A stretch of 64,000 nucleotides of DNA, taken from positions 1,263 to 65,262 of IMG/VR virus record IMGVR_UViG_3300029288_000174. The stretch is one strand, 5' to 3'. Position numbers and translations under genes: made by a program. Below the pieces are notes generated by a model. The model ran no database searches. It had not been told where the DNA came from and worked only from the letters and a program-made list of their open reading frames with translations. Positions 1 through 56,646 of the stretch are shown in pieces (the first letter of the stretch is position 1; each line of letters begins with the position of its first letter). The stretch comes from a virus. Its lineage: Duplodnaviria > Caudoviricetes.

Positions 1-168
1 TACTACGTCGGCTACAACGCGGATCGAACGGCGGAAGCGGCTTGGGCGGCTATCCGTCCGCAGGGTGGCGAGGCTGCCAATGGTTCCGTTCGTGGTTCCG
101 CTGGTTCCGAAAACACCAAAAAGGCGAGTCAACAAGAACACACAACCACAAGTGAAGAAAGCACTTAG
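1..168 (+). CDS. int: Tyrosine integrase, C-terminal fragment (5' end outside window)
   Basis: Frame 1 is open from base 1 to TAG at 166-168. YYVGYNADRTAEAAWAA resembles the catalytic-Tyr C-terminal helix of phage integrases. It lies directly beside a tRNA-derived att core. Confidence 0.7.
   Translation, partial: YYVGYNADRTAEAAWAAIRPQGGEAANGSVRGSAGSENTKKASQQEHTTTSEEST
81..109 (+). repeat. Integrase arm-type sites, left (TGGTTCCG x3)
   Basis: TGGTTCCG at 81-88, 93-100 and 102-109. Confidence 0.7.
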
Positions 169-175
169 AGCATTT

Positions 176-218
176 CGGGGCGTGGCGCAGTCTGGCTAGC
201 GCGTCTGAATGGGGTTCA
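176..218 (+). pseudogene. 5' half of tRNA-Pro(GGG), att core
   Basis: CGGGGCG acceptor 5' strand, D-arm GCGCAGTCTGGCTAGCGC, anticodon arm TCTGA-ATGGGGT-TCA. tRNA similarity stops at 218 and there is no T-arm or 3' acceptor strand. Confidence 0.85.
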
Positions 219-312
219 TGGCTATCCCGATCGTGCCTGCCGGTTTTCTCGCAAAAACATCACTGTTTCCGGTGTTTATCCTAGTCCGTCCTATTTGCCG
301 TTGTTCGTAAAT

Positions 313-321
313 TGTGGATAA
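313..321 (-). promoter_or_regulatory. DnaA-box consensus (TTATCCACA)
   Basis: TGTGGATAA on + strand; a near-match TGTGGATAG is at 636-644. Confidence 0.3.
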
Positions 322-331
322 CTGGCGGAAA

Positions 332-350
332 TGGTTCCGTTTTGGTTCCG
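332..350 (+). repeat. Integrase arm-type sites, right (TGGTTCCG x2)
   Basis: TGGTTCCG at 332-339 and 343-350, same orientation as the left set. Confidence 0.7.
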
Positions 351-382
351 TTCGGCCGCATCATCCTGAGCCTGTCCTATAC

Positions 383-559
383 CTATATATTAGGGACGAT
401 AACGGCCCGATGATCTGGCCACGCCTTGCGGATGCGACGATTGAAGTGCCGGATGAATGATCGGCAGTGCTGGCGGGATGCCTCTTGGATCAGTAGTCCA
501 ATCGGGCGGTTTGTGTTAGCATCAACGAGAACGACAGCATAGCCCCTGGTGTGAAACAT
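383..559 (-). CDS. Small basic hypothetical protein beside attP
   Basis: ATG at 559 gives a 58-aa Arg-rich ORF; its position would suit a directionality factor but no motif was recognised. Confidence 0.3.
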   Translation of the reverse strand: MFHTRGYAVVLVDANTNRPIGLLIQEASRQHCRSFIRHFNRRIRKAWPDHRAVIVPNI

Positions 560-707
560 GGTGAAGAAACTCCCGAGAATCGAGAGGCTGAGGGTCGGCC
601 TCAGCACCGGCGGGCACCCTGGCCCGATCAAAGATTGTGGATAGTATACAGCCGTATATATGGATGTCAAGGGGCATGGCCGCCATTACTCAAAAAAGGG
701 GACAGAA

Positions 708-1505
708 ATGCGAACCACGACTCTGACGGTTGCGATTGTGTTGGTGCTGCTCGCGTCGGCTGGACAGTTGCACGGCCAGAATACGAGCGACACGATAAAG
801 TCGTATCTGGATTTCCGACGTAGCAATTTTCAGCATGACAGGCGAGTGGTGGAAGCCGGAGAGACCGGCGCGGAACTTCTGGGACGCGATGAACGCTGCG
901 GGAAGAAAGAATTCGCGGGCACGCTGCGGGGGAAGATTCCCAAGGACTACAAAATCGGCGACTGGGGATGTTACCATTCGTCGTTGCGGGTTATCAGCGC
1001 GGTAAGCAGTACATCCTGCATCGTCATGCCGACAAACCGAACGCATGGTGGCCCGTTCCTGGTGCGTGGATTGGATATGTCCAAGATGGTGGACAATGTT
1101 GAATTCACGCTCCAACATCCATTCATAATTCTCGGCACCTATCGCTATTCGTCGGCATCCGGTGCGTCGAGAACGATATTGGCGTTCGACTGCGGATCGA
1201 AGTTCAATGAATTCATCGCCGAGAAAACCAAGCGGGACCGCCAGTTGGCAGACGAAAAAGAGAAGGCTGACGCGGAAGAGCGGGCGAGACTCGACGAAGC
1301 ACGCTGGCACACCTGGACCATTGCGAAAAGCGGAGAGAGGATAGACGGTAAGTTTTCCAAGGTGGTAAGCGGTGTGGTGTACGTGACCACACGAAGCGGC
1401 GAAAAGACCACGCTGCAATTGGATGAATTGAGCGAAGGCGACCACGTGTGGATCAAGGATCGGTGTTGGAAGAAGCCGTCAGGAAATTCGTCCACAACAA
1501 AATAA
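708..1505 (+). CDS. Exported protein with C-terminal SHD1-like domain
   Basis: Signal peptide MRTTTLTVAIVLVLLASAGQLHG. The C-terminal WHTWT...IDGKF...GVVYVTTRSGEK...LDELSEGDHVWI matches the SHD1 pattern common in Planctomycetes. Confidence 0.7.
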   Translation: MRTTTLTVAIVLVLLASAGQLHGQNTSDTIKSYLDFRRSNFQHDRRVVEAGETGAELLGRDERCGKKEFAGTLRGKIPKDYKIGDWGCYHSSLRVISAVSSTSCIVMPTNRTHGGPFLVRGLDMSKMVDNVEFTLQHPFIILGTYRYSSASGASRTILAFDCGSKFNEFIAEKTKRDRQLADEKEKADAEERARLDEARWHTWTIAKSGERIDGKFSKVVSGVVYVTTRSGEKTTLQLDELSEGDHVWIKDRCWKKPSGNSSTTK

Positions 1506-3249: not shown

Positions 3250-3318
3250 ACTGACATTCGCTCCGCGCTGCCCTCCCCGCCGGGGCACGCGGATTCAACC
3301 GGCGGGAGGCAAAGAGAA

Positions 3319-3681
3319 ATGAAAATGAAAACGACACTGAAAATCGACCGCAACAGTTTGGCCAATGTGATTCGTGAATTGATTGAGGACGACGCCCACG
3401 GCCCGATGGACCCGCGGCTGATCTACGATTCCCAGACGGGTGAATTTTCGATCGAGAGCAGTCTGAATTCTCTCGACGAAACGGAGCATGTCATCGCCGC
3501 CCGCGTGGGGGATTCGTTTCTCGAATCGGATGCTGCCGAAACTCGCAGCGAAATCGAATCGGCCACGGAAAAACTGCGAGAAAAAATGATTGCTGACGCC
3601 GTTGCAGCAGCGATGGCCGGAATGGACGACGATTACATCGCGGAGTATGTGATTGGCGATTTGACGGAGGCGGCTGAGTAG
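3319..3681 (+). CDS. Acidic hypothetical protein
   Basis: GGAGG RBS upstream; 120-aa ORF. Confidence 0.55.
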   Translation: MKMKTTLKIDRNSLANVIRELIEDDAHGPMDPRLIYDSQTGEFSIESSLNSLDETEHVIAARVGDSFLESDAAETRSEIESATEKLREKMIADAVAAAMAGMDDDYIAEYVIGDLTEAAE

Positions 3682-3841
3682 CATTTCTCCGCGCTGCCCG
3701 GCTCTGCGAAAGCATCCGGGCGGCGTGCCTTTTGGAAAAACTTTCGCCTGCACGGTCCGGGCTTTCAACCCGGCAATCAGGGATCCGATCGAGTACGCCT
3801 GATCTAAGCGGCCCGTTAAGCACGCGAGTCGGCGAAGTGCA

Positions 3842-4054
3842 ATGCGGGCATTATCAATCATGCAATTCGCCAAAAACCTAAAATCCCGCCGCCTCGCTCT
3901 TGGCCTGACCCAGCGACAGGTGGCCGATCTAGCCGCCATGCCGCAGCCTGCCTACGCACGCCTGGAATCCGGTGGCCGCGAGAATCCACGGATTGATACG
4001 CTGCAACGGCTGGCGAAGGCACTTCGCACCACGCCGGACAAACTGCTAAAATAA
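3842..4054 (+). CDS. XRE-family helix-turn-helix regulator
   Basis: LKSRRLALGLTQRQVADLAAMPQPAYARLESGGRENPRIDTLQRLAKAL. Confidence 0.9.
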   Translation: MRALSIMQFAKNLKSRRLALGLTQRQVADLAAMPQPAYARLESGGRENPRIDTLQRLAKALRTTPDKLLK

Positions 4055-4058: not shown

Positions 4059-4133
4059 CCGCCGCTGTACCGTTGCCAATCGTGGGAGCGAATCACGCGG
4101 CAGTCGCGTCCGTGCGACTCGGTACAGCGGCGG
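4059..4133. terminator. Inverted repeat at the convergent XRE / late-operon junction
   Basis: 14-bp perfect IR CCGCCGCTGTACCG (4059-72) / CGGTACAGCGGCGG (4120-33) with an inner AGTCGC/GCGACT hairpin. Confidence 0.4.
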
Positions 4134-5094
4134 CAATTTCTCTCGCGGCCATCGTCGCAATGGCTGCTGCCTGTTGTTCGGTAATTGTCGGGTCGGCCGG
4201 CAGATAGAAAACCTCCCGAGCGAACAGGTTCGCTTTCAGGTGAAAATGCGGTTTGCGGTATTCCTGTTGCGAACTCATCGGCTTGAACGCATGGCGGGCC
4301 GCGACGCCGGCGGCATTCAGATTGGCGATGATCTGCGACTGCTGGGCCGCGTTCATTCCCGGAACTCGTAAATCGTAAACCCAACACGCCTCGCGTTTCG
4401 GAAGTCGATATTGCTCCGGGATAGCGCGGTTGTATGCCGCCTCGATTCGCGTTCGCCGTCGCAAGTTTTCGTTGACGTTGTGTAAACTGCCGAGGATGAT
4501 CGACGCGAGAGCGTTCGCCAACCGATAATTGCAGCCGCGTGGCACGTGGCTGAAATCGTGGGCCGCCGTAAATCCCTGCGACCGCAATTTCTTGGCGAGT
4601 TTTGCGTGGTGGGGATTCTTAAACGCGATCATTCCGCCCTCTTCTCCGGCGACGATCTTATTTCGGTAGAACGACCAGCAGGCGGCGTCGGTGTCTTTGT
4701 GCGGCCTGACGCCGTGGGCCTCGGCCAAATCCTCGACAACGCGACAATCGTAATACCTCGCGGTAGCATGAATGGCCGTCATGTTGCACCGCCTGCCGTA
4801 AATATGCACCGGCATGATGGCCTTGATGCGTTGTGCCGCTCTTCGTTCCACCAGCACCGGGTCAAGCAGCATCGTATCGTCGCAGTCCACGAATACCGGC
4901 TCCAAGCCGGCCATCGTCACCGCTCTGGCGCAAGCGACCATCGTAAACTCAGGAACGATGACGCGACTCTCGGGCCGTAATTCTAACGCCTCCAATGCGA
5001 GGTGTAGGGCGGCCGTGCCGCTGTTGCAAGCAACGGTGTTTGGGTTGCCTATCCACTCGCCAAACTCTTTTTCGAGCCGTTCGTATGCGTCCAT
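4093..5094 (-). CDS. DegT/DnrJ/EryC1/StrS PLP-dependent sugar aminotransferase (perosamine-synthase-like)
   Basis: NSGTAALHLAL, VIVPEFTM, PVHIYG, VVEDLAEAHG, SFYRNK (PLP lysine), GCNYRL. Confidence 0.92.
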   Translation of the reverse strand: MDAYERLEKEFGEWIGNPNTVACNSGTAALHLALEALELRPESRVIVPEFTMVACARAVTMAGLEPVFVDCDDTMLLDPVLVERRAAQRIKAIMPVHIYGRRCNMTAIHATARYYDCRVVEDLAEAHGVRPHKDTDAACWSFYRNKIVAGEEGGMIAFKNPHHAKLAKKLRSQGFTAAHDFSHVPRGCNYRLANALASIILGSLHNVNENLRRRTRIEAAYNRAIPEQYRLPKREACWVYDLRVPGMNAAQQSQIIANLNAAGVAARHAFKPMSSQQEYRKPHFHLKANLFAREVFYLPADPTITEQQAAAIATMAAREIAAAVPSRTDATAA

Positions 5095-5095
5095 G

Positions 5096-6052
5096 TCACC
5101 AGTCCCAGCGGCTCCCGTTCTGCTGATAGTAGTTGATGGTTCGTCGTAACGCCTCACGCAGCGGCACGGCTGGCCGTGTGTCGATGACGCCGTAGAGCTT
5201 GCTGTTGTCGCTCTGCAAGTGCCAGATCTCCCACGGCCGCCGCTTGGCTTCTGTCGGCACGATCGTAATCGATTCGTGGCCCATTAATTCGCCAATGAGT
5301 TTTGCCAAATCGTAAATCGTGACGCATTCTTCCGAACCCATGTTGTAGACTTCGCCGAACTGGCCGCACTCCAGCAATGCGACCGCCATCCGCACGGCAT
5401 CGCCGGCGTACTGAAAATCTCGCGTGCTGTTGTTGCCGAGGCGAATCGTCGGGCCATTCTCGGCAATCTGGCTGATAATCTCGGGAATCACGTATTCATG
5501 CGTTTCCCGCTCGCCGACACAATTGAACTGCCGCATGGCAATGGCCGGGACTTTTGCCTCTCGCCAACGGACTTGCACCAAGCCGTCGGCGGCCATCTTG
5601 CTGACACCATAAGTGCTGTGCGGGCAAACCGGATCGGATTCCTTGATCGCGCCTTTCATGTCGCCGTAGATTTCGGCCGAACTGACTTGCAGCAGTCCCT
5701 CTACTTCCGCCAACTTGCAGGCATTCAGCACCGACAGCACGGCCGTAGCATTGATGGTAAAGAAGTGCGTCGGCCGCTCGAAACATTCCGGGATGTACGG
5801 CTCGGCGGCGTAGTTGAACACGTAGCGAACGCCATGCTGCTGTAGCAGGCGGGCCGTTTCGTGTTCACCTTCGCGGATATCGTGCCATACGAAAGTTGCA
5901 TCCCGATGAATGTGCTTGGTGTGTCCGTTAATCAGGTTGTCCAACACCAATACGTCGCAGCCGCGATCGTCAATGAGGTGGTCAACCAGATGGCTTCCCA
6001 AAAAACCAGCGCCGCCAATGACGCACGCCTTGCAGTTCTTTATCGTTCGCAT
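5096..6052 (-). CDS. NAD-dependent nucleotide-sugar epimerase/4,6-dehydratase (extended SDR)
   Basis: GGAGFLGS Rossmann motif, SSAEIYG, YGVSK (YxxxK), RQFNCVG, TRDF, GEVYNMGS; overall LegB/RmlB-like. Confidence 0.92.
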   Translation of the reverse strand: MRTIKNCKACVIGGAGFLGSHLVDHLIDDRGCDVLVLDNLINGHTKHIHRDATFVWHDIREGEHETARLLQQHGVRYVFNYAAEPYIPECFERPTHFFTINATAVLSVLNACKLAEVEGLLQVSSAEIYGDMKGAIKESDPVCPHSTYGVSKMAADGLVQVRWREAKVPAIAMRQFNCVGERETHEYVIPEIISQIAENGPTIRLGNNSTRDFQYAGDAVRMAVALLECGQFGEVYNMGSEECVTIYDLAKLIGELMGHESITIVPTEAKRRPWEIWHLQSDNSKLYGVIDTRPAVPLREALRRTINYYQQNGSRWDW

Positions 6053-6061
6053 AATTCGCTC

Positions 6062-6943
6062 CTAAGTGTGAACATCCGCCACGCCGCGCAGTTCGCCGAC
6101 TGTTGTCGGATGGCATTGCTTGTAGGCCATGACGGCATCCGTGCCACGATAGAATCCCGGCAACGGGACCAACGAGAACCCCAGCCACTGGTAGATTTTC
6201 TGCATCGGCTTGTTGTCTCCGCGCATGAATCCGTAGCACGTTCCCACGGTGCTGCCGATGACCTTTTGTAGAATGTTGATGCTCCCATTCATGGCCGCCA
6301 GCCCGCCACGCCCGCGTACTTCGTCGCTGGTAGCTAGTTCGTAAAACTCCACCGTGCCATCGTGACCGGCCCGATAAATCAGCGTGACACCATCCTGGAC
6401 GATGGTATTGTGTGTGAAGTCTTCCGCATCATGCACGGCATCGATCATGCGATAGCAGGTCGGAACGGTATACGACAGCAGCAATAGACGATCCGCCACG
6501 CGAAGCAATTCTGTTTCCATGAGTCGCCACGTCGCCGTGCCGAGTCTGTCCTTTACCATGCCGTCAAGTGAGCGGGCAATGCACATATCGAAGCTGCGAT
6601 CGGGAAACGGTAGCTTTCGCAGGTCGGCCACGTCGAACGCTTTCCCGGGATTCCGCTTTCTGGCTTCCTGGATAAAGTCCGGCGACAGGTCGATTCCAAC
6701 GTACTCTGCTTGCGGCAGAACCTCGCAAAGCGCCCCGTATCCACACCCGGCGTCAAGTAAACGAGTCCCCGGCGGGATTAGTTTGGCCAGCAGTTCGCGG
6801 TGCGTCGCCTGAATGTTGTCCCATGCGCCTTGATTCACGTCGTAAACAGAGCGGTGGATTTCGTTCTGTGCCAACGCTCTACGTAGCCGTGGCCGCCAGA
6901 ATTGCGGATCGTCGATGTTGGTTTCACGCGACTTTAGATTCAT
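6062..6943 (-). CDS. Class I SAM methyltransferase fused to a GNAT-like domain
   Basis: LLDAGCGYG, YVGIDLSPDFI, VADLRKLPFPDRSFD; C-terminal EVRGRGG and DNKPMQKIYQWLGF resemble GNAT motifs A and B. Confidence 0.7.
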   Translation of the reverse strand: MNLKSRETNIDDPQFWRPRLRRALAQNEIHRSVYDVNQGAWDNIQATHRELLAKLIPPGTRLLDAGCGYGALCEVLPQAEYVGIDLSPDFIQEARKRNPGKAFDVADLRKLPFPDRSFDMCIARSLDGMVKDRLGTATWRLMETELLRVADRLLLLSYTVPTCYRMIDAVHDAEDFTHNTIVQDGVTLIYRAGHDGTVEFYELATSDEVRGRGGLAAMNGSINILQKVIGSTVGTCYGFMRGDNKPMQKIYQWLGFSLVPLPGFYRGTDAVMAYKQCHPTTVGELRGVADVHT

Positions 6944-7793
6944 GCTGAAAAATCTCCGGTATCGGACCATGATAATCAACCACCGATGCCCGCCACGGCA
7001 ATTCGTCGCCTGGCTGCCACGTCTCAAAGGCGGCTCGGCAGTTGACGTACCTTTGCCGTTGGTCCCTCACGCCTTCGCCACGCGCTACGTAATAGCGATG
7101 CTTGGCGCTTCGCATGAGTTGGGATGATGCGAACCCAAGATGGACGCACTGCGGGGCCTGGTCGTAGTTGTCGTAACGCTGAATGGCCTTGTCCAGCGAA
7201 CGGCCCGCAATGTCCGCTGGCGTGTTGTGGTTGTTCGCGTAGTGCAAACCATGCGACCACCGCCAGCCGCGACAGTGTGGTATGGCCCAGTAGCCGCCGA
7301 CCACTTCCCGCCGAAACAGCGGCTCATGGAGGATGCTTGTCGGCCGCCAGATATGCCGCTGCTTGAGAAGAAAGCCACGATAGCGTTCGTTGGCCGCCTT
7401 CATGGTTTCCGCAAATAGCTTCTGGTGATGGTGCGTGTAGTATTCGTCGGCGTCCAAGACCGCAATAAAGTCGGGCCGCGTCAACTCCGCGACTTTCATA
7501 TATTCCTGTCGAGAGGCGACCTTGCCTTGGGCCGGGTCGGTGTGTTTCGACAGGCCATAGGGAACATACACAACGCGGTGATCGTTGGCGGCCAAGTTCT
7601 GCAAATACTGCGAAGTGCCGTCGGTGGACAGTCCGGCGTCAGTCACCAGCGACAGATTCGCCTTGGCGTACATCGAATCGGCCGACTCGACAAACACCCA
7701 CCTATCGAGCCACGGCCAATCGTAATGCTGGGCGTAAAGTCTCGGCAAATGCTCCATCTCATTTAAGCAGAGCGTAGCCAGTAGAATCTTCAT
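6924..7793 (-). CDS. Glycosyltransferase, GT2-like (GT-A fold)
   Basis: LCLNEMEHLPRL, STDGT, DFIAVLDADEYY (DxD motif). Confidence 0.85.
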   Translation of the reverse strand: MKILLATLCLNEMEHLPRLYAQHYDWPWLDRWVFVESADSMYAKANLSLVTDAGLSTDGTSQYLQNLAANDHRVVYVPYGLSKHTDPAQGKVASRQEYMKVAELTRPDFIAVLDADEYYTHHHQKLFAETMKAANERYRGFLLKQRHIWRPTSILHEPLFRREVVGGYWAIPHCRGWRWSHGLHYANNHNTPADIAGRSLDKAIQRYDNYDQAPQCVHLGFASSQLMRSAKHRYYVARGEGVRDQRQRYVNCRAAFETWQPGDELPWRASVVDYHGPIPEIFQHESKVA

Positions 7794-8773
7794 GGCGACT
7801 TCTCCAGCGATTGCAGGTAGAGCGGCTTGAGGGCGTCCCAACTCATGGACTCGGCCCACGCCCGCCCGCGTTGCGAGTAGGCCGTTATGTCGCGTTCATA
7901 CCATTCGTCGATCGTGCGGGCGATTATGCGGGGATCAAGTACCGCCCGGTCAACCGTCACGGCGATCTTCGTTTTTTCGACGCCCGTGATCGGTATCAGC
8001 GGCTCGGCGGGCAGCCACTCCGTCATGGGGAATCGCTTGCTGGCCATTACCAGCATCCCGCTGGCGTAGGCTTCCTGGAGCGGCAGCGAAAGGCCGTTGA
8101 ATTTCTCGGGAAAGACAAACACGTCGCCATCGTAGAGCTTGTCGGCGGGCACGTTGTCAAGCACAAACGTAATGCGTTTGTCGCGGTTGCCGCGATACTT
8201 GTCGAACAGTCGCAGTATCTGTCGTTCGTCCGGCTGTCCGCGTACCGTTAAGTGGATCGGGCTTTGCACGTATCGCATCGCCTCCAATAGTTCCGGCGTG
8301 CCGTTGCGGTAGTTCGTGCCGCCGTGTCCAGCGTTGTGGATGAATTGCTTGGCGACCGTCCGCTGCTTCCACGGCACGTCAACGGGGACCGGCACAAACA
8401 GCGATGGCAAGTCTTTGTAGTATTGCAGGTCGAGCATCGACGGGCACAGATACACGTCGGCCGGAACCGGCAGAGGCATCGGCGTCCATTCGTACATCGG
8501 CATCATGGCAATGCGGATTCCCTGCCGCCGTGCCGCTCTGACGATATTCCAGTCAAAGGCGTTTTCAAGCAGGAATAGCACGTCCAGCCCGTGAAGAAAG
8601 TCACGGTGAGTTTCCACCGTGAAGCGGTTCTCTGACGGATACCACTCGGGATGGTTTTGGTAATGCGGGTGGCGAATCAGCAGGATGCGATTGACAATGC
8701 CGTGGTCGTAGAAAGACTTGGCGAGAATACCAAGCCCCGATTGCGTTGCGTAGCTGATGGCTCCGATATTCAT
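7790..8773 (-). CDS. Glycosyltransferase, GT4-like (GT-B fold)
   Basis: DVFVFPEKFNGLSLPLQEAYASGMLVMAS signature; ATGA-coupled to its neighbours. Confidence 0.88.
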   Translation of the reverse strand: MNIGAISYATQSGLGILAKSFYDHGIVNRILLIRHPHYQNHPEWYPSENRFTVETHRDFLHGLDVLFLLENAFDWNIVRAARRQGIRIAMMPMYEWTPMPLPVPADVYLCPSMLDLQYYKDLPSLFVPVPVDVPWKQRTVAKQFIHNAGHGGTNYRNGTPELLEAMRYVQSPIHLTVRGQPDERQILRLFDKYRGNRDKRITFVLDNVPADKLYDGDVFVFPEKFNGLSLPLQEAYASGMLVMASKRFPMTEWLPAEPLIPITGVEKTKIAVTVDRAVLDPRIIARTIDEWYERDITAYSQRGRAWAESMSWDALKPLYLQSLEKSP

Positions 8774-9447
8774 GTCAGCAACTCCCGCGCGTCAAACTGT
8801 TCGCCGCGAAATGATAACGCTAGCGGCTGTAGCCGATTACCTACCGAGCTTTCGGTGCCGGTGTGTTGCACCAGGCTCGGATTGTGGACGTATTCCTTCC
8901 AGCCAACCAGCTTAAACGCCGTAACGATGCCGCCATCAACCCACTTGTACCCACGGTTTACATCCTTGGGGCGATTAACCATGTAGGGACTGCTGAGAAG
9001 AGTCACTACGGCCTCATTGGTAAACACCAAGGCGACGGCGCCCTTGCCGAGTTGGTCCGACAAGTACCAGCCGTTGCGGCCGTTTGCCATCGCTTGGTTT
9101 TTCGGGAACGTGTAGAGATTTAGATACCCACGTTGCGGTTGCTGGCATTGTTCCAGGTATTCGCGCAGGTGCCGATACGTAACGAAATCATCCTGAAAAA
9201 TCGCGTAGCGGTCGGCCAGCGGGTCGCGAACGTACAGTTCCCACAGCGATGCCACCCAATTGCCGTAGCATCGCAAGGGCGGATCGTGAAATGTAGACTC
9301 CAGGCCGAACCGCTCGAACCCCTGCCCGCTGCCGTCGATGAATAGACGCGGCTGCTCGAATCCTGCCAGTGCCAACGAGGCAAGCGTGCGGGGCAGCAAA
9401 TCGTCCCGCCGCTTGGGCACGGTAGTAACTCCATAACTCCATCTCAT
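8770..9447 (-). CDS. Glycosyltransferase, GT-A fold (GT25-like)
   Basis: YAIFQDDF (acidic motif) and YVHNPSLVQHTG; ATGA overlap at 9444-9447. Confidence 0.7.
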   Translation of the reverse strand: MRWSYGVTTVPKRRDDLLPRTLASLALAGFEQPRLFIDGSGQGFERFGLESTFHDPPLRCYGNWVASLWELYVRDPLADRYAIFQDDFVTYRHLREYLEQCQQPQRGYLNLYTFPKNQAMANGRNGWYLSDQLGKGAVALVFTNEAVVTLLSSPYMVNRPKDVNRGYKWVDGGIVTAFKLVGWKEYVHNPSLVQHTGTESSVGNRLQPLALSFRGEQFDARELLT

Positions 9448-9719
9448 CGCATCACCCTTAATTTGTACTTGGCGTTTCGTATAGCCATCAACACCACAAA
9501 CTTGGCGGCACATTCCACAAATACCATGCCGCGTTTTTCGGCTTCCTCTTTCATCCACCCGATGATGGTGTCGATGTTTTGCAGGCACCACTCGGGGCCT
9601 TGCACGTCCATGAGCAAAGCCCGCTGGTCACAGTTGCAGCCCGCCGTGGAAGTGATTCCATAGCGGCGCAGCATCCGCTTCAGTTCCGTTCCAGCCCCGA
9701 TTGTCGCCTGCTGTTTCAC
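9444..9719 (-). CDS. Small CxC-motif hypothetical protein
   Basis: GAGTELKRML...GCNCDQRA.LMD..GPEWC..NIDTIIGWM.EEA; coupled to the GT locus. Confidence 0.7.
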   Translation of the reverse strand: MKQQATIGAGTELKRMLRRYGITSTAGCNCDQRALLMDVQGPEWCLQNIDTIIGWMKEEAEKRGMVFVECAAKFVVLMAIRNAKYKLRVMR

Positions 9720-9720: not shown

Positions 9721-10212
9721 TTATGGCGTCCCTGAGCCGGTCAGTTCTTCGGGGATTCCGTAGAACTCAAGGTTGAGCGCAAATGGAATGCGGGTGTTCG
9801 ATCCCGAGTCTGGATTGAACGGCACTCCCCAATCCTCGACTCGATAGAATATCGAGGTGATGTCCGTTGTGATCGGGCACGGTTCGTTTCCGCCGTGATG
9901 CCAGAACACCGGCCGACTAGGAGTGACAATCAGCTCGCCGAAGTTCCAATCGTTGAAGCTGACGATAACTTGCGGCTTGGTTCCCGGCAGCAACGGCAGA
10001 TAATAGTCGGTTTCCATGTTGATAAACATGGCGTGCAGATTATCCAGGAAAATTGAATAATCAAATCGCGACTGCCACCAGCCACCAGCAGCCATTTCGG
10101 GAGGAACCACGTGAATTTTCAGGCGGCCAAGGATGCTCGCATCGTAGGTGAATGTGTTCACCTTTGCGGCCTCGGCTCCGCTTTTCCATGATTGAGTTAT
10201 TTGTAACGCCAT
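9721..10212 (-). CDS. Hypothetical, possibly virion-associated protein
   Basis: Beta-rich 163-aa ORF within the late operon. Confidence 0.55.
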   Translation of the reverse strand: MALQITQSWKSGAEAAKVNTFTYDASILGRLKIHVVPPEMAAGGWWQSRFDYSIFLDNLHAMFINMETDYYLPLLPGTKPQVIVSFNDWNFGELIVTPSRPVFWHHGGNEPCPITTDITSIFYRVEDWGVPFNPDSGSNTRIPFALNLEFYGIPEELTGSGTP

Positions 10213-10253: not shown

Positions 10254-11093
10254 TTAGTTCGGCCGCGCTATCCGCATCGGTGGCGGAATGATACCGGCCT
10301 GACGCATTTCTTCCGCCGACAACGGGCCGCCCATCATCGGTTGCCCAGGGCCCATCGGCGGCCGGGCAAACTGTTGTGTCTGCGGCGGCCCCGCAAACGT
10401 GTCGGCTTCCGGCAAGTCAATGGCCCCTTCGGCCTTGAGTACGTTGGCAACTGCCGAAATAGCCCGGCTCTGTTGTACGCTCATTACGATGCCATCGGGC
10501 ACGGCCTCGGTAAGGGCCTTGATGGCTTCCGTAGCGTTGGGGGCGATGATGGCCCGGCTCTGCGGAATCTGATTGTCTGCGGTCACGAAAACAACTTGGT
10601 AGGCATACGCAATCATGTCACTCGCTCCTTTGGGAACTTCTGCTTTTGCGCCCCACTTGCCGACGGGGCACGATTCGGTCGCCATCTTGATCTTGTTCAA
10701 GACAGTGAGTTTAGAAAGGTTTACATTGCAGCCGCATTTCGAGCATTTGCCGTCTACGAAATATTGGCAGGGCCTCGGCTTCGGGCGGCAGAACGTGTTG
10801 TAGATTTGCTCGACTTCCTCTTGGCTTCGCTTCGGCCGACCGGCCTTGTACCATCGCAGCAGGGCCTTGATGTAGGTCTTTGCCGTCTCGAAGGACACGC
10901 CCAGGTCGGCCGCCGCTTCCTTCGTCTGTTCCTCTGCTTCCGCCGTCATGGGAATCTCTTGCGGCGGCAGATAGCCGGGCCGCTTCATGGGTGGCATGGC
11001 CATCGGCCCCAAGTAGCCGTCGTTCATCGTCAGCGGTCTGCGAATCGAGCCGAGCATCTTGTTGATCGGGTGTGTTGGGTCTTGTGGTCGCAT
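10254..11093 (-). CDS. Hypothetical protein with Cys-rich module (DUF6171-like) and Pro/Met-rich termini
   Basis: IYNTFC..CQYFVDGKCSKCGC....NKIKMATESCPVGKW. Confidence 0.6.
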   Translation of the reverse strand: MRPQDPTHPINKMLGSIRRPLTMNDGYLGPMAMPPMKRPGYLPPQEIPMTAEAEEQTKEAAADLGVSFETAKTYIKALLRWYKAGRPKRSQEEVEQIYNTFCRPKPRPCQYFVDGKCSKCGCNVNLSKLTVLNKIKMATESCPVGKWGAKAEVPKGASDMIAYAYQVVFVTADNQIPQSRAIIAPNATEAIKALTEAVPDGIVMSVQQSRAISAVANVLKAEGAIDLPEADTFAGPPQTQQFARPPMGPGQPMMGGPLSAEEMRQAGIIPPPMRIARPN

Positions 11094-11094
11094 A

Positions 11095-14000
11095 TCATGC
11101 TTCCCCAATGTGGTGCGGAGTTAGTGAGTATTTCGAGCCGTCAACCAGTCCGCACGATTGCCAGTAATCGTCAATGATACATTCCAGTTTCTCTGGCACC
11201 ACGCCCGATGCGATGCAGAAACTGTATCGCCAATTATCGTCGCTGCCCTGCCAGCACCAATCGAACAGCAGGCGAATGATGCAAGCGTTCTGCCTGCCAA
11301 GATTCGGCGTTGCCGACACAGCAATGGGGTAATGCTCGTTGACCCAGTAGTGCGTTTGCCCCAACACGTTCGGCCGATATTCCTCATAGGTCTGCGGTAC
11401 GTTGGTGTAATTCTCTACCAGCCCGGCGGCAATCAGCCTGATGATCCATTCGCCGTTATCCTGGTCGATCTGGAACCAGTCTTTCGGCGTCATGTCGATG
11501 GTGGCGAACGTAAACCCGACGCCGGTAATGCTGGTGCTGGTGTTCCACGCAAAGGTGATTTCGCCGAACAGCACGCTCTCGCCTTGGATGTCGATGTACA
11601 GCAGGATGCTATCGGTAGACTGCGTGGCGAGTACGTTTAGGTCTGGGTGCTGGTTGATCTTGCGAACGAGGATATTGATGGTTGCCGCCAGCGTAGCTTG
11701 CACGGGCACCGTATCGTCCCCGGTGTCCTGGTCTGAGGCGACGAAGGTAAACGGGACCGGCTCGTCAAATCCATTGGCGATAGAGAACTGTTCACCCGCT
11801 TGTACCTGCGTGGTGGCCGCCTGCGAATTGGCCAAGTCCACGATTTGCATTTCCACGTCGTAAACGAGGATGCAGCTTTCATCCATCGGATCGTTGGGAA
11901 TGGCCCGCACGTTCAATACGTCGCTGTCGCATAGCTCATTGACTTGCGTCACGATGCCGCGAATCTTCTCAGTTTGATTGGCGGCAAGCTGGACGCTGGA
12001 GCCGTTGCTTACGCCCGATATAAACGTAATCGTGGCCGTGTGATCGTCGTCAACCTCAATAACAAACTCCGACCCAATCTGCGGTTCAATGACTTGCGTA
12101 GTGCTGTGTAATACGTCGTGGTACGTGAGCGTGCAACCATTGAACCAAGGCGCGATAACATACATGCGGCCCGCGTTACAGAACGTATCCCCGGCGGCCG
12201 TAACCACCGCTTGCATTACTTGGCCTTCCCACGGCAAATCAAAGTCAATCGCGTCGCACCACGCATCGGAGAAGGCAATTGGCGGCTGGTGCTTGATCGT
12301 GGTGAGGCCGATCATGTTGCCTTGCGGCTCTTGTTCCCAAGCGTGAATCTTGAATACCGGCTCTAGCAATCCCTCCTGTTTGCAAACGTCCGTCATAAAG
12401 GCCGTGTTGATGGCGTCGTGAATCGCTTCGATCTGGCGGATGTCATCGTCGATGATCGGAACGATAACGATTTCGGAAGCGGAGCCGGCCCCCAGCGTTG
12501 CGTCGCAGCCACCGTCCATTCCGTAAATCGTCAGCGGTTGCGTGGTGTCCATCGGGGCCGTCACCCACTCCTCGAATATCCGAGTGGTGAGGCTGGCGAC
12601 GATGGCAATGTTTCCTTGCGGGCCGATGTGCTGGTTGATTAGCGTGAGGCGGCTACTACGTGTCCCCGCTCTCCTAACGTCGATGTCCAAGTCCCTGTCT
12701 GGTTCGGTGCCGTTGGCCATCCCGGTAGCGACGATGAACTGCGACGAATAGCCCAACGGTACATTGTTGTCACCCAGCAGCAGATTCGTCAGGTCGCACG
12801 TGGTTTCAGGACCGCCGCCGACGGCCGCCGACATGTAGAAGTTGGGAGTGCCGTTGACCGCCGCAACCAAGTTTGCCGCAGCGGCGTCCACGTCGGCGCC
12901 CATATCCACTTCAATGTAGCCTTCGGGAACACCGCCGCCCGTCGAGAACTGGTAGTTTTTGGTGGTGAAGCCATCGTTGATAAACACCCGGTCGCCTTCG
13001 CTGACTTGATGCGTGAACCAAAACGATCCCGTCGAGTGTGTGCCGGACGTGGGATCGACGCCGCCGCTCATGCCAGTAGCGTAAATGGTGGCTGGGGTGC
13101 CCGATCCCACGCAATCCACGGTGATGTCATGGTTCCCGATGACGCCCGCGATGTTGTGCATCAGGCAGCACGTGCCGTCATTGTTGCCGAGCGAAGCCGT
13201 TACGCTGAGCGGGTTTGCGTTCGTGTTGACAGCTAAGATTAGCCGCTTGATCGTATCCTGTAGGTCGAAGCCGACCGCCACGCCCACGCGACTGACGGGC
13301 GTACCCGGCAATGACGATGATGGATCAAGCCCGCCGCTCATGCCGGTAATTGTAAAGCTGCCGCCAACGTGTTCGATGTCCACGTTTCCGGCTGCCAGCT
13401 TGCGGTCGTTCGTCAAGTGGACCGTGGCGTCGGCAAGGTACGTGTCTGGATCGGTGCCCGTACCGGACGCGATGGTGTCCGTCGAAGTAATATCTAGCAG
13501 GCGGCTTGTGTCGTTGATCGCAAAGGCCAGATTCGCCGCTGTTTCCTCTTTGTTTTCGCTACTGATCTCGACGGCCACATTTCCCGGCTGAGCGATGCCG
13601 TCGATAACCACAAACTCGAATGTGATCCAGGGATGCTTGGGGTTGCCATCCCACATTCGCAAGATCGTGCCGACGGTAGGCTGGCCGGTGAATTGGATTG
13701 TCCCCGTCGCGGCCGTGCCATCGTCGGTGAACTCGAATATCGAATCAAAGTGCGTTGGGATACCATCGTCGATGGTGATCGTGTCGCCCGGCTCGGGCTG
13801 TGCAGTGAATGTCAGTTTGCCTACCGCGTGCCGCCCGCTGGCTGAGTTGATTGCCGTTTCAATGGCCGCCGCCGTTTCGCTGTTGCCCCAGCCCAGCGTT
13901 ACACCGATGTTGCCCGGCGTAATATCATCGCCGCCGTCTTCGCCGTCCACCATACCGTAGACGATGATATTGTCACCCGTTGTGCTGATCGCCTGATTAC

Positions 14001-16770
14001 AAAGGGCAGACTTATGCAGACTGGTCAACACACAGAAGTCATCCGGCGGCACGCTGGCCGTTGCTGAGATGCCGATTCCCGTCAGGCCGTTAAGCTGGAA
14101 TACAAAGTTGGCCATCGTTTCCACGCGGTCGATGCCAATAACGACGCCGACGTTTCCAGACAACAATGAACCGCTTGGGCCGTCCAGTCCGCCGACCATC
14201 CCGAGAACCTCGAAGGGCGGCCCGGCGTCCGGGTCAGGGTCCGTGAAACTCGGCCCACCGAACTGAATCGCGTGATTGCCTACGGTGCTGGCGTGGATGT
14301 TGACCAGCAAGAACCAATCGACTTCGCCGTTTGCCGTCCCCGTTCCCGTGCCTGTCCCCGTGCCGGTGCCGGTGCCCACCAGCGAAAAGTCATCCGCCAC
14401 GATGTCCATATCGGCTGCGCTGTTGATGGCGTTGTAGAGGCTGGTGGCCGTGTCGCGTTGGGTCGCGCCGATAGGTATTTTGATGAACCTGTCCGACGCT
14501 ACGATACCGATGTCGCCGAATGAGAATGTTTTGCGAGTATGGATGCCATCGTCCAAAACAATGAAGTCACCGGCTCGCGGCTGATCGAATACCTTGACCC
14601 AACCGTGGGCCGACGTGCCTGTTGTGAGTTCCAGCGTGAGTTGCTTGCGGCCGTCGTGGAGCGTAATCGTATCGCCGGATGCCGGGTTGTCGATAAACTG
14701 GACCGTGCCCCATGATGCCCGGCCTTGGTCAAACTCAAACGTAACGGGGCCGTGGCCGGTCACGCCGTCGGCCAGTCGGAACCAGTCGCCGTCGGCGGGC
14801 GGATACTCGACGGTGATCGAACCGCGTGCGGGAGCGCCGTTGCCGACGAATTGGAACGTAGCAACGCACCCGTTGCTGTCGTTCATTTCCCAGCTAACGC
14901 CGTCGCGGATTGGTAGAATCCACCGCTGGTAGGTCGGGTTGGAATTTCCCTCCCCGTCGATTTCGTCGTGGAAATCGAAGTAGTAGAGGGAGCGTTGGTA
15001 AGTGGGCGTGACTCGCAGTTCCCAGTAGTCGATGTCTGCCGTGCCGCATCCTGTGTCTAGGCATTCATTTTCCAGATAACCCTGCGCGTTCGTGTTCCCC
15101 ATCGACGCGCCATAGCAGTTTTGGCAGTCGGCGTAGCTCGCTCTCTTTATCAAGTTGACTTGGGCGTAGGAGTTAGTGAAGTCGGCGGAATGGCCGGTGT
15201 CGAGGCCGGTTGACCACGTGGGGTCGAACGGCAGCAGTTGATTGATTTGGTCGGATGTCGGCTTGATGGCCCCCGGCACCGACCACGATTTCTGATAGGT
15301 CAGCACGCGCCAACGCGGTTCGGCCCCTAGCGGCCCGAGAATATAGGACAGGTCTGCACCGGTAACATAGACCTGAATCAGCGTGTCAATGCACCCAGTG
15401 CCGCGTGTCGGATTGTTGACCCATGACCAACGCCAGCCGAAGTAGCTCGGGAACGGGGCAATACAGCTTGTTGGCTTGGCGTAGAACATCGCCGTATTGA
15501 GGTAGCGATAATTCACCGTGACTTGATCGTGCTGCGGATCGACTTCCATCGGTGACTGCGCCAGAGTGCAATAGCATTCCTCGGGGCTGGTGATACCGAC
15601 GAAGTTGACTTGAGCACAACAGATTCCATACGAAGGGATGTCGATGTCGGCCAGATTGTTGTCGCAAAACCGCTCCGGTGGGAAGCAGCAATCCATTCGC
15701 GGTTGCCGACGTTTCGACCACGAAATGCCGTAAGTGTAGTCGAGATAGTACCACCCATTAGGAAATGCCGGCTCGCCCGTGCATGGCTTTGTCTCACCTC
15801 GGCAGTCGTAGTTGTAGTTCCACGGCATCAACGGGCCGGGGTCGCCGTGCGGGTAGCCTTCCGCAGTGTAGTAGAAGTTCTCCCAGCAGCAGTCGAACGC
15901 ATCGTACTTGGAGCATTCGCCAGTCCAGCACGGCTGTTCGGACAGCAGATTTGGCGCGGGCGGGTCATACCAACCGGGAATTTCTGGTGCCAGCAAAACT
16001 TGCCCGTAGCCGCAACATGACCAACACCACGGATAGGGATTGTCGCCCAGCCATGCGTCCTTGACGCATTGCGGTATCCCATTTGGATAGCTGGAAATTA
16101 CGTAGACGCCGTGCTGTTGCGAAATGGAACCGCTTTGCAATGACGGCAGTGTTTCGTAGACCTCAAAATATCCAACCACCGGATCATCCGTGGCGATGGT
16201 GTAGCGATAGTTGTCGCAGCCAGTGAACCACGTCCGACGAAACTCAGTGGTATAGCCGGGTCCATAGGGGCTGCCGTCAAACGTGTACACGTCTCCATAG
16301 GGTGCTGAACTGTGAACCAGATTCCCCTGGTAGACGCCGGTGAACAAGTTGCCTTTCGAGGGCTGGCAGGGTGGGCTTGGACATTGGTAAACATCTTCGT
16401 ACCCTGACACCACTACCCAAATGCTGAGCGGTATCGAATCACCACCAAAGGCTGAGATGCAACTATCGGGGTCGCTGGGGTCTTCTTCAATCCAGCAGGT
16501 TTCAATGTACTCCTGCGATTCGGGGTCGTTGGGGTCGTAGAGAGGATTCAGTTCATACCAACACTCAAACCACTCGTTGTAGTCGGCATACCAAAACAGC
16601 GTACCGACCGCCTCGCACGTGCGGATGTTGGTCTGGTAGTAGCAGAGCGAACCCCAGAAGCTGTAAAGCGGAATTGATAGCAGCAATTCAAAGACACTCT
16701 TGAACCGCCGCCCGCTCGCGTGCGGTGGCGTGAATGCGTGTCGGAGAAGTCTGCGGAGTAGGTTCAACAT
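11095..16770 (-). CDS. Giant (1,891 aa) putative tail fibre/adhesin with Cys-rich N-terminus and nested repeat domains
   Basis: TAATG-coupled start at 16770, downstream of the tape-measure and tail-tip genes. Recurrent G.I.F..QP..GD.I.I.DG....FEF / V.IG....TA..L..AIN / L.N...G..GN..I / GM.GG modules. Confidence 0.75.
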   Translation of the reverse strand: MLNLLRRLLRHAFTPPHASGRRFKSVFELLLSIPLYSFWGSLCYYQTNIRTCEAVGTLFWYADYNEWFECWYELNPLYDPNDPESQEYIETCWIEEDPSDPDSCISAFGGDSIPLSIWVVVSGYEDVYQCPSPPCQPSKGNLFTGVYQGNLVHSSAPYGDVYTFDGSPYGPGYTTEFRRTWFTGCDNYRYTIATDDPVVGYFEVYETLPSLQSGSISQQHGVYVISSYPNGIPQCVKDAWLGDNPYPWCWSCCGYGQVLLAPEIPGWYDPPAPNLLSEQPCWTGECSKYDAFDCCWENFYYTAEGYPHGDPGPLMPWNYNYDCRGETKPCTGEPAFPNGWYYLDYTYGISWSKRRQPRMDCCFPPERFCDNNLADIDIPSYGICCAQVNFVGITSPEECYCTLAQSPMEVDPQHDQVTVNYRYLNTAMFYAKPTSCIAPFPSYFGWRWSWVNNPTRGTGCIDTLIQVYVTGADLSYILGPLGAEPRWRVLTYQKSWSVPGAIKPTSDQINQLLPFDPTWSTGLDTGHSADFTNSYAQVNLIKRASYADCQNCYGASMGNTNAQGYLENECLDTGCGTADIDYWELRVTPTYQRSLYYFDFHDEIDGEGNSNPTYQRWILPIRDGVSWEMNDSNGCVATFQFVGNGAPARGSITVEYPPADGDWFRLADGVTGHGPVTFEFDQGRASWGTVQFIDNPASGDTITLHDGRKQLTLELTTGTSAHGWVKVFDQPRAGDFIVLDDGIHTRKTFSFGDIGIVASDRFIKIPIGATQRDTATSLYNAINSAADMDIVADDFSLVGTGTGTGTGTGTGTANGEVDWFLLVNIHASTVGNHAIQFGGPSFTDPDPDAGPPFEVLGMVGGLDGPSGSLLSGNVGVVIGIDRVETMANFVFQLNGLTGIGISATASVPPDDFCVLTSLHKSALCNQAISTTGDNIIVYGMVDGEDGGDDITPGNIGVTLGWGNSETAAAIETAINSASGRHAVGKLTFTAQPEPGDTITIDDGIPTHFDSIFEFTDDGTAATGTIQFTGQPTVGTILRMWDGNPKHPWITFEFVVIDGIAQPGNVAVEISSENKEETAANLAFAINDTSRLLDITSTDTIASGTGTDPDTYLADATVHLTNDRKLAAGNVDIEHVGGSFTITGMSGGLDPSSSLPGTPVSRVGVAVGFDLQDTIKRLILAVNTNANPLSVTASLGNNDGTCCLMHNIAGVIGNHDITVDCVGSGTPATIYATGMSGGVDPTSGTHSTGSFWFTHQVSEGDRVFINDGFTTKNYQFSTGGGVPEGYIEVDMGADVDAAAANLVAAVNGTPNFYMSAAVGGGPETTCDLTNLLLGDNNVPLGYSSQFIVATGMANGTEPDRDLDIDVRRAGTRSSRLTLINQHIGPQGNIAIVASLTTRIFEEWVTAPMDTTQPLTIYGMDGGCDATLGAGSASEIVIVPIIDDDIRQIEAIHDAINTAFMTDVCKQEGLLEPVFKIHAWEQEPQGNMIGLTTIKHQPPIAFSDAWCDAIDFDLPWEGQVMQAVVTAAGDTFCNAGRMYVIAPWFNGCTLTYHDVLHSTTQVIEPQIGSEFVIEVDDDHTATITFISGVSNGSSVQLAANQTEKIRGIVTQVNELCDSDVLNVRAIPNDPMDESCILVYDVEMQIVDLANSQAATTQVQAGEQFSIANGFDEPVPFTFVASDQDTGDDTVPVQATLAATINILVRKINQHPDLNVLATQSTDSILLYIDIQGESVLFGEITFAWNTSTSITGVGFTFATIDMTPKDWFQIDQDNGEWIIRLIAAGLVENYTNVPQTYEEYRPNVLGQTHYWVNEHYPIAVSATPNLGRQNACIIRLLFDWCWQGSDDNWRYSFCIASGVVPEKLECIIDDYWQSCGLVDGSKYSLTPHHIGEA
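14335..14376 (-). repeat. (Gly-Thr)n run in the giant fibre
   Basis: About seven GT dipeptides encoded with mixed codons (GGC/GGG/GGA; ACC/ACG/ACA). Confidence 0.85.
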
Positions 16771-17639
16771 TATGACAACAAGCACGGTGCCCCAACAACG
16801 AAGAACTTTCTCGCATTCGGCCAGTAGTCAACGATGACCGGCGTAAAAGGCGGAATCGTCTGGCCTGGTGCCAACAGGTGATCGTGGGCCGTTTTGATTG
16901 TCAGCCCGGCACTATTGATAAGCAGCGCCACGGCCGCCGATTGGCCGTAAGGCATTCCGCCGCGGCGCATAATGAAGCCTGGAAAACTCAACTGCTGCGA
17001 CATGCGATGCGTTATCATCACGTACTTAGGGCCACCGACTAGCCCTTCGTAGCCGTTGGTGTCGGAGTAGCCGTCCACGGCCACGGATGAACACTGAACA
17101 ATGTCACCGGCCCACGCGGGTAGTTGCAGGCTCGGGTCGATAACAATCACCGTCGAGGTTGTATTGACTTGACCTTCTTCGGGGTCGTATAGAAATCCGG
17201 CGTCCAGCAGTTCCAGCGGATTAGCCAAGGATGAATAGGTGTCATCATCCATGTCCCGCAGCATCAGGTAATAGTTCGTGCTGACGGAACCGCCCGCGAC
17301 GGCCAGCCACTTGCCGAACTTGTCGCGGTTCACCTGGAACCAGCCGCTGGTAATGGCGGTTGCCGAGAGGTTGTAAATCGCTCGCATGATGCCGGCGGAA
17401 ATCAGCGTTGGTACGCCGGTCACTTCGACGATCTTGTAAATGTCGCACTCCGCTTGGCCCGGCGTGGTGCCGCTTAACGCCGGTAGGCCGCCGCTCGGAG
17501 CCTGAGCCACGTACACATCCGGCGTCTGGCCCGGTAGACTGAGGCTCGTTGACGCAGCTCTATTTTGTGGACGGGCACGCCACTGGGCGAGGATGCGCCG
17601 CAAGTCGCGATGGTCTTCCTCAGTCAGAAATTTGGCCAT
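16770..17639 (-). CDS. Tail-tip region protein, paralog B
   Basis: Shares PD(V/I)YVA...C/ADxYKIV...WFQ(V/I)NRDKFG(K/R)WL and RMSQQL.FPG with 17639-19000. Confidence 0.7.
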   Translation of the reverse strand: MAKFLTEEDHRDLRRILAQWRARPQNRAASTSLSLPGQTPDVYVAQAPSGGLPALSGTTPGQAECDIYKIVEVTGVPTLISAGIMRAIYNLSATAITSGWFQVNRDKFGKWLAVAGGSVSTNYYLMLRDMDDDTYSSLANPLELLDAGFLYDPEEGQVNTTSTVIVIDPSLQLPAWAGDIVQCSSVAVDGYSDTNGYEGLVGGPKYVMITHRMSQQLSFPGFIMRRGGMPYGQSAAVALLINSAGLTIKTAHDHLLAPGQTIPPFTPVIVDYWPNARKFFVVGAPCLLS

Positions 17640-41544: not shown

Positions 41545-42039
41545 CTATTCTCCCTTGTGTATGGTTGGTGGCGTTTCGGACAATTCCGTCAACGCCGATT
41601 CGCAATCGTGTAATTCCTGCCGAAAAAGTTCTACTTGCTGAGTCAAGGTATCTAGGTCGATGTCAGTCGAAACCGTGTGGGCCATGCCCGCTTCGTCCGA
41701 TTGCCGAAATGCCTGCTGTAGCGGCAGGCTCTTGGCGTCCTGCCATCGTTGTAGGCCGGTCAATCGCCGTTCGGCATACAGTAGTCGCTGCCGTGCGTTT
41801 TCGTGGCGGATCGACCAATATGCGTGCTTCCGTGTGGCCAGTTCGCTTGGCGACTCTGCCGGCGGCCACTCGGGTCCGGCGTAGTCGGTCGCACTGTATT
41901 GCCAGCCATCGCTAAACAGCAGCCGCCCGGCGTGCATTACCGGCTCGCCGTGTGCTTGGCAGAATCGCAGAAAATACGCCCGCCAGTCGAGGCGAATCTT
42001 GATCGTGCCGTCGTTGGCGTTGTGGATTGCCACTAACAC
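41545..42039 (-). CDS. Hypothetical protein
   Basis: Between terL and portal. Confidence 0.55.
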   Translation of the reverse strand: MLVAIHNANDGTIKIRLDWRAYFLRFCQAHGEPVMHAGRLLFSDGWQYSATDYAGPEWPPAESPSELATRKHAYWSIRHENARQRLLYAERRLTGLQRWQDAKSLPLQQAFRQSDEAGMAHTVSTDIDLDTLTQQVELFRQELHDCESALTELSETPPTIHKGE

Positions 42040-46049: not shown

Positions 46050-46070
46050 GGTTTCTTCCTTTCTTTTCGC

Positions 46071-56645: not shown

Positions 56646-56646
56646 G

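Follow-up and report, generated by a model that had tools for sequence, protein, structure and literature searches.

A glycosyltransferase and amino-sugar gene cassette behind the tail genes of an uncultured tailed phage, a candidate system for virion glycosylation

The late operon of the tailed phage in IMG/VR record IMGVR_UViG_3300029288_000174 (Duplodnaviria; Caudoviricetes) closes with a cassette of six coupled genes, which lies on the minus strand at positions 4093-9447 of the 64,000-nucleotide stretch of DNA analysed here (hereafter the window). These genes encode three glycosyltransferases, a methyltransferase fused to a GNAT-like domain, an extended short-chain dehydrogenase/reductase (SDR) and a DegT-family aminotransferase. 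The gene nearest to the tail genes specifies a GT-A glycosyltransferase, P0001 (8770-9447; 225 aa), recognised by the fold of its AlphaFold2 (AF2) model and hereafter called the anchor transferase. It is followed by a GT-B enzyme of GT4-like type, P0004 (7790-8773; 327 aa; PF00534 and PHROG matches), a second GT-A enzyme of GT2-like type, P0002 (6924-7793; 289 aa; a weak PF00535 match and an AF2 model), the class I S-adenosylmethionine (SAM) methyltransferase with its GNAT-like C-terminal domain, P0003 (6062-6943; Pfam and Atlas matches), the extended-SDR nucleotide-sugar enzyme (5096-6052; PF01370 and PF16363) and the DegT-family pyridoxal phosphate (PLP) sugar aminotransferase (4093-5094; 333 aa; PF01041). 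An initial annotation of the window had listed these six genes; all are present, and their families and folds bear out the content that it described.

The genes are tightly packed, as had been noted: ATGA overlaps at 9447/9444, 8773/8770 and 7793/7790, a gap of 9 nt ahead of the SDR gene and a gap of 1 nt ahead of the DegT gene were all recovered, together with an additional overlap of 20 nt between P0002 and P0003 (6943/6924). The longest-ORF (open reading frame) starts for the P0003 and DegT genes were rejected, the true starts being 6943 and 5094. Three further minus-strand genes, g284 (10254-11108; 284 aa), g163 (9721-10212; 163 aa) and g91 (9444-9719; 91 aa), stand between the gene for a fibre of 1896 aa (11095-16785, minus strand) and the cassette, which thus begins three genes past the fibre at the distal end of the structural operon, where the initial annotation had placed it. 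The first of these overlaps is that of g91 with the start of the anchor transferase gene, and translational coupling links the whole chain of genes from fibre to DegT. Across the nine proteins encoded from g284 to DegT, there is no membrane segment (no 19-residue window above 1.6 on the Kyte-Doolittle scale), and no family matching GtrA, GtrB or a serotype-specific Gtr protein was found in Pfam, PHROG or NCBIfam; the earlier statements on both points therefore hold. The cassette consists wholly of cytoplasmic, soluble enzymes, and no nucleotidyltransferase is encoded in it.

The position of the anchor transferase gene behind the tail genes is conserved. P0001 has 34 relatives in IMG/VR with 43-59% identity, and a profile search extends its family to at least 1761 protein clusters, all of them metagenomic, labelled 'hypothetical' and without a Pfam domain. 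In 185,579 species genomes, the family has three matches, all on contigs of metagenome-assembled genomes (MAGs). No match was obtained with P0001 in 50,697 phage records (tblastn) or with the cassette DNA among cultured phages. For a test of synteny, relatives were chosen independently of the transferase, via an alignment of homologues of the tail/baseplate protein g368; this alignment worked, whereas scanning viral contigs with the single sequence of g368 or of the GT2-like protein gave nothing. Of the 32 loci chosen in this way that have at least 6 kb downstream, 31 carry the anchor gene 2-7 kb downstream of g368 in the same orientation. The exception, L079, truly lacks the anchor; there, the homologous tail protein is directly followed by a 627-aa fusion protein (L079:13370-15253), consisting of a GT2 domain, a methyltransferase domain (Methyltransf_24 / rhamnosyl O-methyltransferase-like) and a C-terminal DUF6171, and by a second GT2. 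The linkage to the tail extends to distant phages. With three related genomes, the window has its structural module in common and no early genes, and in the phages G003 and G004 the anchor gene directly follows the distal tail genes with no other detectable gene in common with the window. A tyrosine integrase was found in only two of 23 related viral records (one of the 16 with a completeness of 90% or more), and no serine recombinase in the five related records checked.

The genes that follow the anchor are variable and always sugar-related. A common order, seen in many loci, is tail genes, anchor, GT4-like, GT2-like, methyltransferase, in some cases a GNAT-like gene, and DegT. Twenty-six distinct contigs extend 7 kb or more beyond the anchor; judged by BLAST, they contain a GT4-like gene in nine cases, a GT2-like gene in eight, a DegT gene of the same short length in eight, a methyltransferase gene in six, a GNAT-like gene in three and an SDR gene in one, and a set of the window type is present in about a third of them. 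We also scanned 78 downstream ORFs in 12 loci without such a set and found radical SAM enzymes (9), Glycos_transf_2 (6) and Gly_transf_sug (3) domains, several methyltransferase families, Caps_synth, FdtA, GT47, a cytidylyltransferase, LicD, TylF, rhamnosyl O-methyltransferase and an MptE-like domain. A SPASM domain also occurs after the anchor among the relatives, and two further loci combine a radical SAM enzyme with GT2s and a pair of methyltransferases. These families thus point to a post-tail slot whose kind stays constant while its content changes.

The anchor transferase itself had been called GT25-like. No match to P0001 was found in Pfam, PHROG or NCBIfam, and its AF2 model (predicted local distance difference test score, pLDDT, 91.3) has a GT-A fold. 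Across an alignment of 25 family members, FQDDF (the DxD motif) and a C-terminal His do not vary. In VIA-align, the best solved chain is human POMGnT1 (Z 18.7; root mean square deviation 3.0 over 211 residues; 19% identity), and GnT-I scores Z 16.8; both are GT13 enzymes with a DxD motif, as in the anchor. Unlike them, P0001 has no Pfam GNT-I match and consists of a minimal catalytic domain of 225 residues without stem or lectin domains. ColGalT1 (GT25) reaches Z 13.3, the level of other GT-A chains (about 13), and PF01755 (GT25) gave no match. The Atlas neighbours of P0001 are virus-dominated clusters with mixed minority labels (GT2, GT25, GNT-I and MGAT2), the GT25 label being attached to 12-17% of their members. 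Since ColGalT1 lies at the GT-A background and the Atlas labels are mixed, the name GT25-like is right for the fold of P0001 and not for its family. The best viral fold match is gp87 of Ardmore, a cluster-F mycobacteriophage (E 7e-10; template modelling (TM) score 0.60).

The two other transferases are of more familiar types. P0004 matches PF00534 (E 1.7e-5), PF13692 and the glycosyltransferase PHROG 2170, and its family profile gave weak matches to solved structures, all of them GT4/GT5 structures. P0002 has weak matches to PF00535 and PF13704, and a D-A-D-E motif is invariant in its family. A search of solved structures with the P0002 family profile returned chance matches only; a fold search was used instead. 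The AF2 model (pLDDT 90.9) has a GT-A fold, and its best matches in VIA-align are ThuS (Z 15.8) and SunS (Z 14.3), both glycocin peptide S-glycosyltransferases.

These matches bring up one alternative, that the transferases glycosylate some other cytoplasmic target, either a non-structural protein of phage or host or a small molecule, and that its position reflects late timing only. No acceptor was identified, the GT2-like enzyme comes closest in fold to peptide-modifying transferases, and radical SAM enzymes and the SPASM domain, which follow the anchor in many relatives, are common in peptide maturation. This explanation sits poorly with a post-tail position that is fixed across divergent phages, including G003 and G004. 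Moreover, no gene resembling a precursor peptide was recognised, without a systematic search for one having been made. We regard such a target as unlikely.

The remaining enzymes of the cassette make and modify sugars. The SDR matches PF01370 (E 2.9e-47) and PF16363 (E 4.4e-43), and in an alignment its GxxGxxG (GGAGFLGS) and YGVSK motifs fall on the equivalent positions in the dTDP-glucose 4,6-dehydratase 8shh. Its best solved match is a UDP-glucuronate 4-epimerase, with dehydratases close behind; that epimerase has S-S at the positions of A-E in the window SDR. Orthologues of the SDR were found at 72% (L059), 69% (L071) and 49% (L001) identity. As the Glu of the dehydratase triad is retained and an aminotransferase is encoded next door, the enzyme probably makes a 4-keto sugar, as a 4,6-dehydratase or something similar. 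Alternatively, it may act by decarboxylation, in the manner of ArnA, on the way to a 4-amino pentose.

The aminotransferase matches PF01041 with 222 bits (cut-off 19.8). Its nearest solved relative is the Caulobacter GDP-perosamine synthase 3bn1 (E 6e-47), and its SFYRNK aligns with the SFFGNK PLP-lysine motif of that enzyme. The resemblance to the GDP-perosamine and LegB-LegC pathways is also seen in NCBIfam, where the top matches are LegC for DegT and LegB for the SDR. It has limits, as both window enzymes score far below the equivalog cut-offs and the N-terminus of DegT is about 35 residues shorter than that of perosamine synthase. A truncation of the DegT N-terminus was considered and rejected, because the orthologues are equally short. 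In relatives of the L016 type, the orthologous aminotransferase gene stands beside genes for an enzyme of the GDP-mannose-4,6-dehydratase family (PF16363, 230 bits) and a sugar C-methyltransferase. These neighbours make a perosamine-type sugar the leading candidate for the product of the cassette. A homing-endonuclease-like ORF with HNH and helix-turn-helix (HTH) features is inserted in that locus (L016:12874-13377) between the GDP-mannose-dehydratase-like and GT4-like genes.

The methyltransferase part of P0003 covers about residues 1-175 and scores over the cut-off for PF08241 and PF13649. No GNAT family was detected in P0003 with Pfam at E 0.01. Residues 188-287 align to a stand-alone GNAT-like ORF of L016 (E 1e-9), which itself reaches 23.3 of the 27 bits required for PF13508. 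In the Atlas, residues 186-293 gave GNAT proteins in all ten best feature matches (top score 0.94), and the ten structure matches listed were all GNAT clusters (TM 0.69-0.73). The two parts are encoded by separate genes in the relatives where both were found, and a protein-database search for the fusion (lengths 161-513) matched the query only. A MAFFT alignment that misplaced the GNAT fragments was kept out of the folding.

Of the small proteins between fibre and anchor, g91 is taken to be a partner of the transferase. It has a conserved Cys-x-Cys...Cys pattern, and its domain has no family in Pfam. Homologues lie directly ahead of the anchor gene in many relatives, and in L012, L083, L084, L086 and L091 the g91 homologue is in the reading frame of the transferase or in its stop-to-stop ORF. 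The domain may be a zinc-binding adaptor. In some relatives, a Cys-rich domain of this type is found twice per locus (L060:9618-10164; L067:8508-10584). For g163, which lies 1 nt upstream of g91, there was no match in Pfam, PHROG or NCBIfam and no homologue in related loci at E 1e-5. The Cys-rich g284, which likely starts with an ATG near 11093 that overlaps the stop of the fibre gene, has a tail rich in Pro, Gly and Met and a weak DUF6171-like stretch (PF19668, E 0.0031, below cut-off). The fusion protein of L079 ties DUF6171 to glycosyltransferases. In that locus, the domain is joined to the GT2-methyltransferase protein in the same slot, and in another relative it occurs downstream of the anchor. 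The DUF6171-transferase fusion lends weight to the weak signal in g284, which is possibly part of the sugar module; the module would then probably begin right after the fibre, at 11108.

We consider the best reading of these data, and on balance a probable one, to be that the cassette is expressed late and decorates the particle of the phage itself. The SDR would convert a host nucleotide-sugar to a 4-keto sugar, from which DegT would form a 4-amino sugar (perosamine, viosamine or bacillosamine class). The GNAT-like domain would N-acylate the amino sugar, and the fused methyltransferase would methylate either the sugar or the finished glycan. The three soluble transferases, two GT-A and one GT-B, would build a short glycan. 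The anchor transferase would be the conserved core of the system, working with the small Cys-rich protein encoded just upstream, and the remaining genes would be the version of a swappable set that this phage carries; related phages would therefore carry different glycans. The data show the gene identities, the folds, the coupling of the genes and the conserved post-tail position; which sugar is made, in what sequence the enzymes act and, most of all, what the glycan is attached to are inferred. A lytic-cycle, particle-linked role is favoured over lysogenic conversion or DNA glycosylation by the position of the anchor in 31 of the 32 loci, by the rarity of integrases among the relatives and by the fact that no enzyme for hydroxymethylated bases was seen in the early region.

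Several observations weigh against this interpretation. No Ser/Thr-rich tract or terminal extension that might serve as acceptor was detected in the late and virion proteins. The claim of virion glycosylation made in the initial annotation is supported in part, by position, coupling and synteny; no acceptor protein was identified. A promoter and terminator scan stayed at chance level, and the argument for late expression comes from gene arrangement only. In the SDR, S-A-E replaces the T-D-E of RmlB, that is, the Glu is kept and the Asp has become Ala (GMD dehydratases have T-S-E at these positions), and all NCBIfam scores are far below cut-off (LegB 147.6/475, RmlB 146.2/365 and GMD 49/415 bits). 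The earlier pairing of a dehydratase with DegT holds at the level of an extended SDR and a DegT aminotransferase; the canonical dehydratase triad is absent. The GT13 and SunS/ThuS matches exceed the general GT-A background by just 2-5 Z units, and TarP and TarS are among the GT-A fold matches. Furthermore, the cassette adjoins the integrase-side accessory genes of the phage, and the lineage has no cultured member.

The TarP and TarS matches and the place beside the accessory genes bear on a second alternative. Working from inside the cytoplasm, the enzymes would modify a polymer of the host envelope (O-antigen, wall polymer, capsule or S-layer glycan) and so mask the receptor, be it in lysogens or towards the end of infection, when masking would keep progeny from being wasted on cell debris. 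Integrase-side accessory regions often hold conversion genes, and the cassette abuts one that includes a superinfection-immunity protein and an HTH gene. TarP, which is prophage-encoded, and TarS are soluble GT-A enzymes that act on wall teichoic acid; since soluble transferases can act on cell-wall polymers, the lack of membrane proteins does not prove a protein target. N-acyl 4-amino sugars are, in addition, typical components of O-antigen. Set against this, the anchor lies within the tail module in 31 of 32 relatives, nearly all of them without an integrase, and overlaps of stop and start codons couple it to the fibre genes. The cassette encodes no phosphoglycosyl transferase, flippase, polymerase, Gtr protein or any other membrane protein, and the anchor family is nearly absent from bacterial genomes. 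Modification of the host envelope therefore seems to us improbable.

Phage glycosyltransferases classically act on DNA, as in the T-even phages (PMC9614988), and the cassette could in principle glycosylate the bases of the phage DNA against restriction. The phage does possess a C5 methylase and a Mom-family protein. In contrast, the Pfam families of 30 ORFs from the early region (44915-63610) include no thymidylate-synthase-like hydroxymethylase, TET/JBP enzyme or other enzyme for a sugar-accepting base; a dedicated TET_JBP search was empty, but the control genomes were silent too. The cassette genes also belong to the tail module rather than to the replication module, and the related genomes share structural genes and no early genes. 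We consider DNA glycosylation highly improbable.

Returning to glycosylation of the virion, the closest known counterparts are mycobacteriophages. Virion glycosylation by the phage's own transferases is reported as established for Che8, Corndog and Myrna, the transferases include Che8 gp110 and Corndog gp38, and glycans are reported on the C-termini of capsid and tail-tube proteins (Freeman et al. 2023, as summarised in PMC12363180 and PMC12619734). Common to these phages and ours are soluble glycosyltransferases and methyltransferases encoded beside structural genes, in temperate and lytic phages alike, and the best viral fold match of the anchor is the mycobacteriophage protein Ardmore gp87. 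The window cassette differs in having its own amino-sugar pathway and an anchor with neither a Pfam model nor a sequence homologue in the phage records searched by tblastn. In addition, no such C-terminal extension is visible in the window virion proteins.

The initial annotation had compared the pathway with that of a giant virus. The Mimivirus fibril glycosylation cluster comprises the dehydratase R141, the aminotransferase L136, the N-acetyltransferase/glycosyltransferase L142, the methyltransferase R132 and the glycosyltransferases L137-L140, and the N-terminal domain of L142 has been modelled on PglB (PMC9614988). In both systems, one virus-encoded cluster provides a 4,6-dehydratase (a probable one in the window), a PLP aminotransferase and an N-acetyltransferase in succession, together with a SAM methyltransferase and several transferases, and both act without the host secretory pathway. 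One belongs to a giant virus and the other to a tailed phage, and the window acetyltransferase is a small GNAT-like domain fused to a methyltransferase, unlike the PglB-modelled L142. The window SDR, moreover, lacks the canonical Asp. The logic of the comparison holds and its homology does not: the relation is one of analogy and not of shared cluster ancestry.

Flagellin O-glycosylation islands offer a further parallel, in that soluble enzymes modify the subunits of an extracellular filament before assembly. Like the slot described here, they are hypervariable and contain DegT/SDR amino-sugar genes, and one relative of the window has an MptE-like domain, which we take to be a domain of Maf flagellin glycosyltransferases. 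Such O-glycosylation is cytoplasmic, for example that by Caulobacter FlmG (PMC7591256) and that of Maf systems. In contrast to these islands, the window has no FlmG, Maf or tetratricopeptide repeat (TPR)-type transferase and no nonulosonic acid synthase.

What is new here is an anchor transferase that belongs to a large family known only from metagenomes, has no Pfam model and is linked to the tail in its relatives. To our knowledge, only a few mycobacteriophages have been shown to glycosylate their virions with enzymes of their own. If our interpretation is true, such glycosylation would be a standard, highly variable trait of a large group of uncultured tailed phages, some of which, like the window phage, would make their own rare amino sugar. 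The glycan would then affect adsorption, stability and visibility to antibodies, lectins and defence systems. One may speculate further that the anchor and its Cys-rich adaptor form a phage-specific protein-glycosylation system, which places a rapidly swappable glycan on the tail tip or the fibres, and that the glycan itself is a diversifying determinant of host recognition or defence escape across a very large uncultured lineage; we offer this tentatively, as an idea with a rather low probability. The analysis gives a function-level handle on three unnamed families, namely the anchor transferase, the g91 domain and DUF6171, and soluble enzymes for the synthesis of modified sugars can be drawn from such cassettes.

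The window corresponds to bases 1263-65262 of a contig of 65,262 bp, which is the longest of the 508 contigs of a MAG and 2.5 times the length of the next contig in the bin. Its G+C content of 57.6%, compared with 64.8 ± 2.6% for the MAG contigs, makes it a composition outlier in the bin, and no 20-mer of the putative attachment region (window 151-420) occurs elsewhere in this 74%-complete MAG. For these two reasons we treat the contig as a phage genome without an assigned host, and consider the host assignment by binning doubtful. ARAGORN found no tRNA in window positions 1-1000.

The long late operon that the cassette closes begins, on the minus strand, with the small (43607-44218) and large (42033-43610) terminase genes and the portal gene (40003-41541). 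A head-morphogenesis protein and a scaffold/protease-like protein are listed between the portal and the major capsid protein (35357-36523, minus strand), and the tail genes between the capsid and the fibre. At the left contig end there is a tyrosine integrase gene, in agreement with the earlier description of the phage as temperate. It is followed by plus-strand accessory genes, which include genes for zinc-ribbon proteins and for the membrane protein with the superinfection-immunity domain (1448-1966), the latter lying in the integrase-side region outside the cassette. The XRE-type HTH gene (3842-4054, plus strand), also outside the cassette, converges on the stop of the DegT gene with a gap of 38 nt (4054/4093). 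A minus-strand ORF of 214 aa (3295-3939) matched nothing in the libraries; it overlaps both the start of the HTH gene and plus-strand ORFs, and is probably not a gene. The Pfam scan of the early region identified the Mom-family protein, the C5 DNA methylase (52829-53653), the anti-Thoeris protein Tad4, a CsrA homologue, RecT, PD-(D/E)XK nucleases, DUF5131 and DUF7666. The phage thus carries both DNA-modification and anti-defence genes in its early region.

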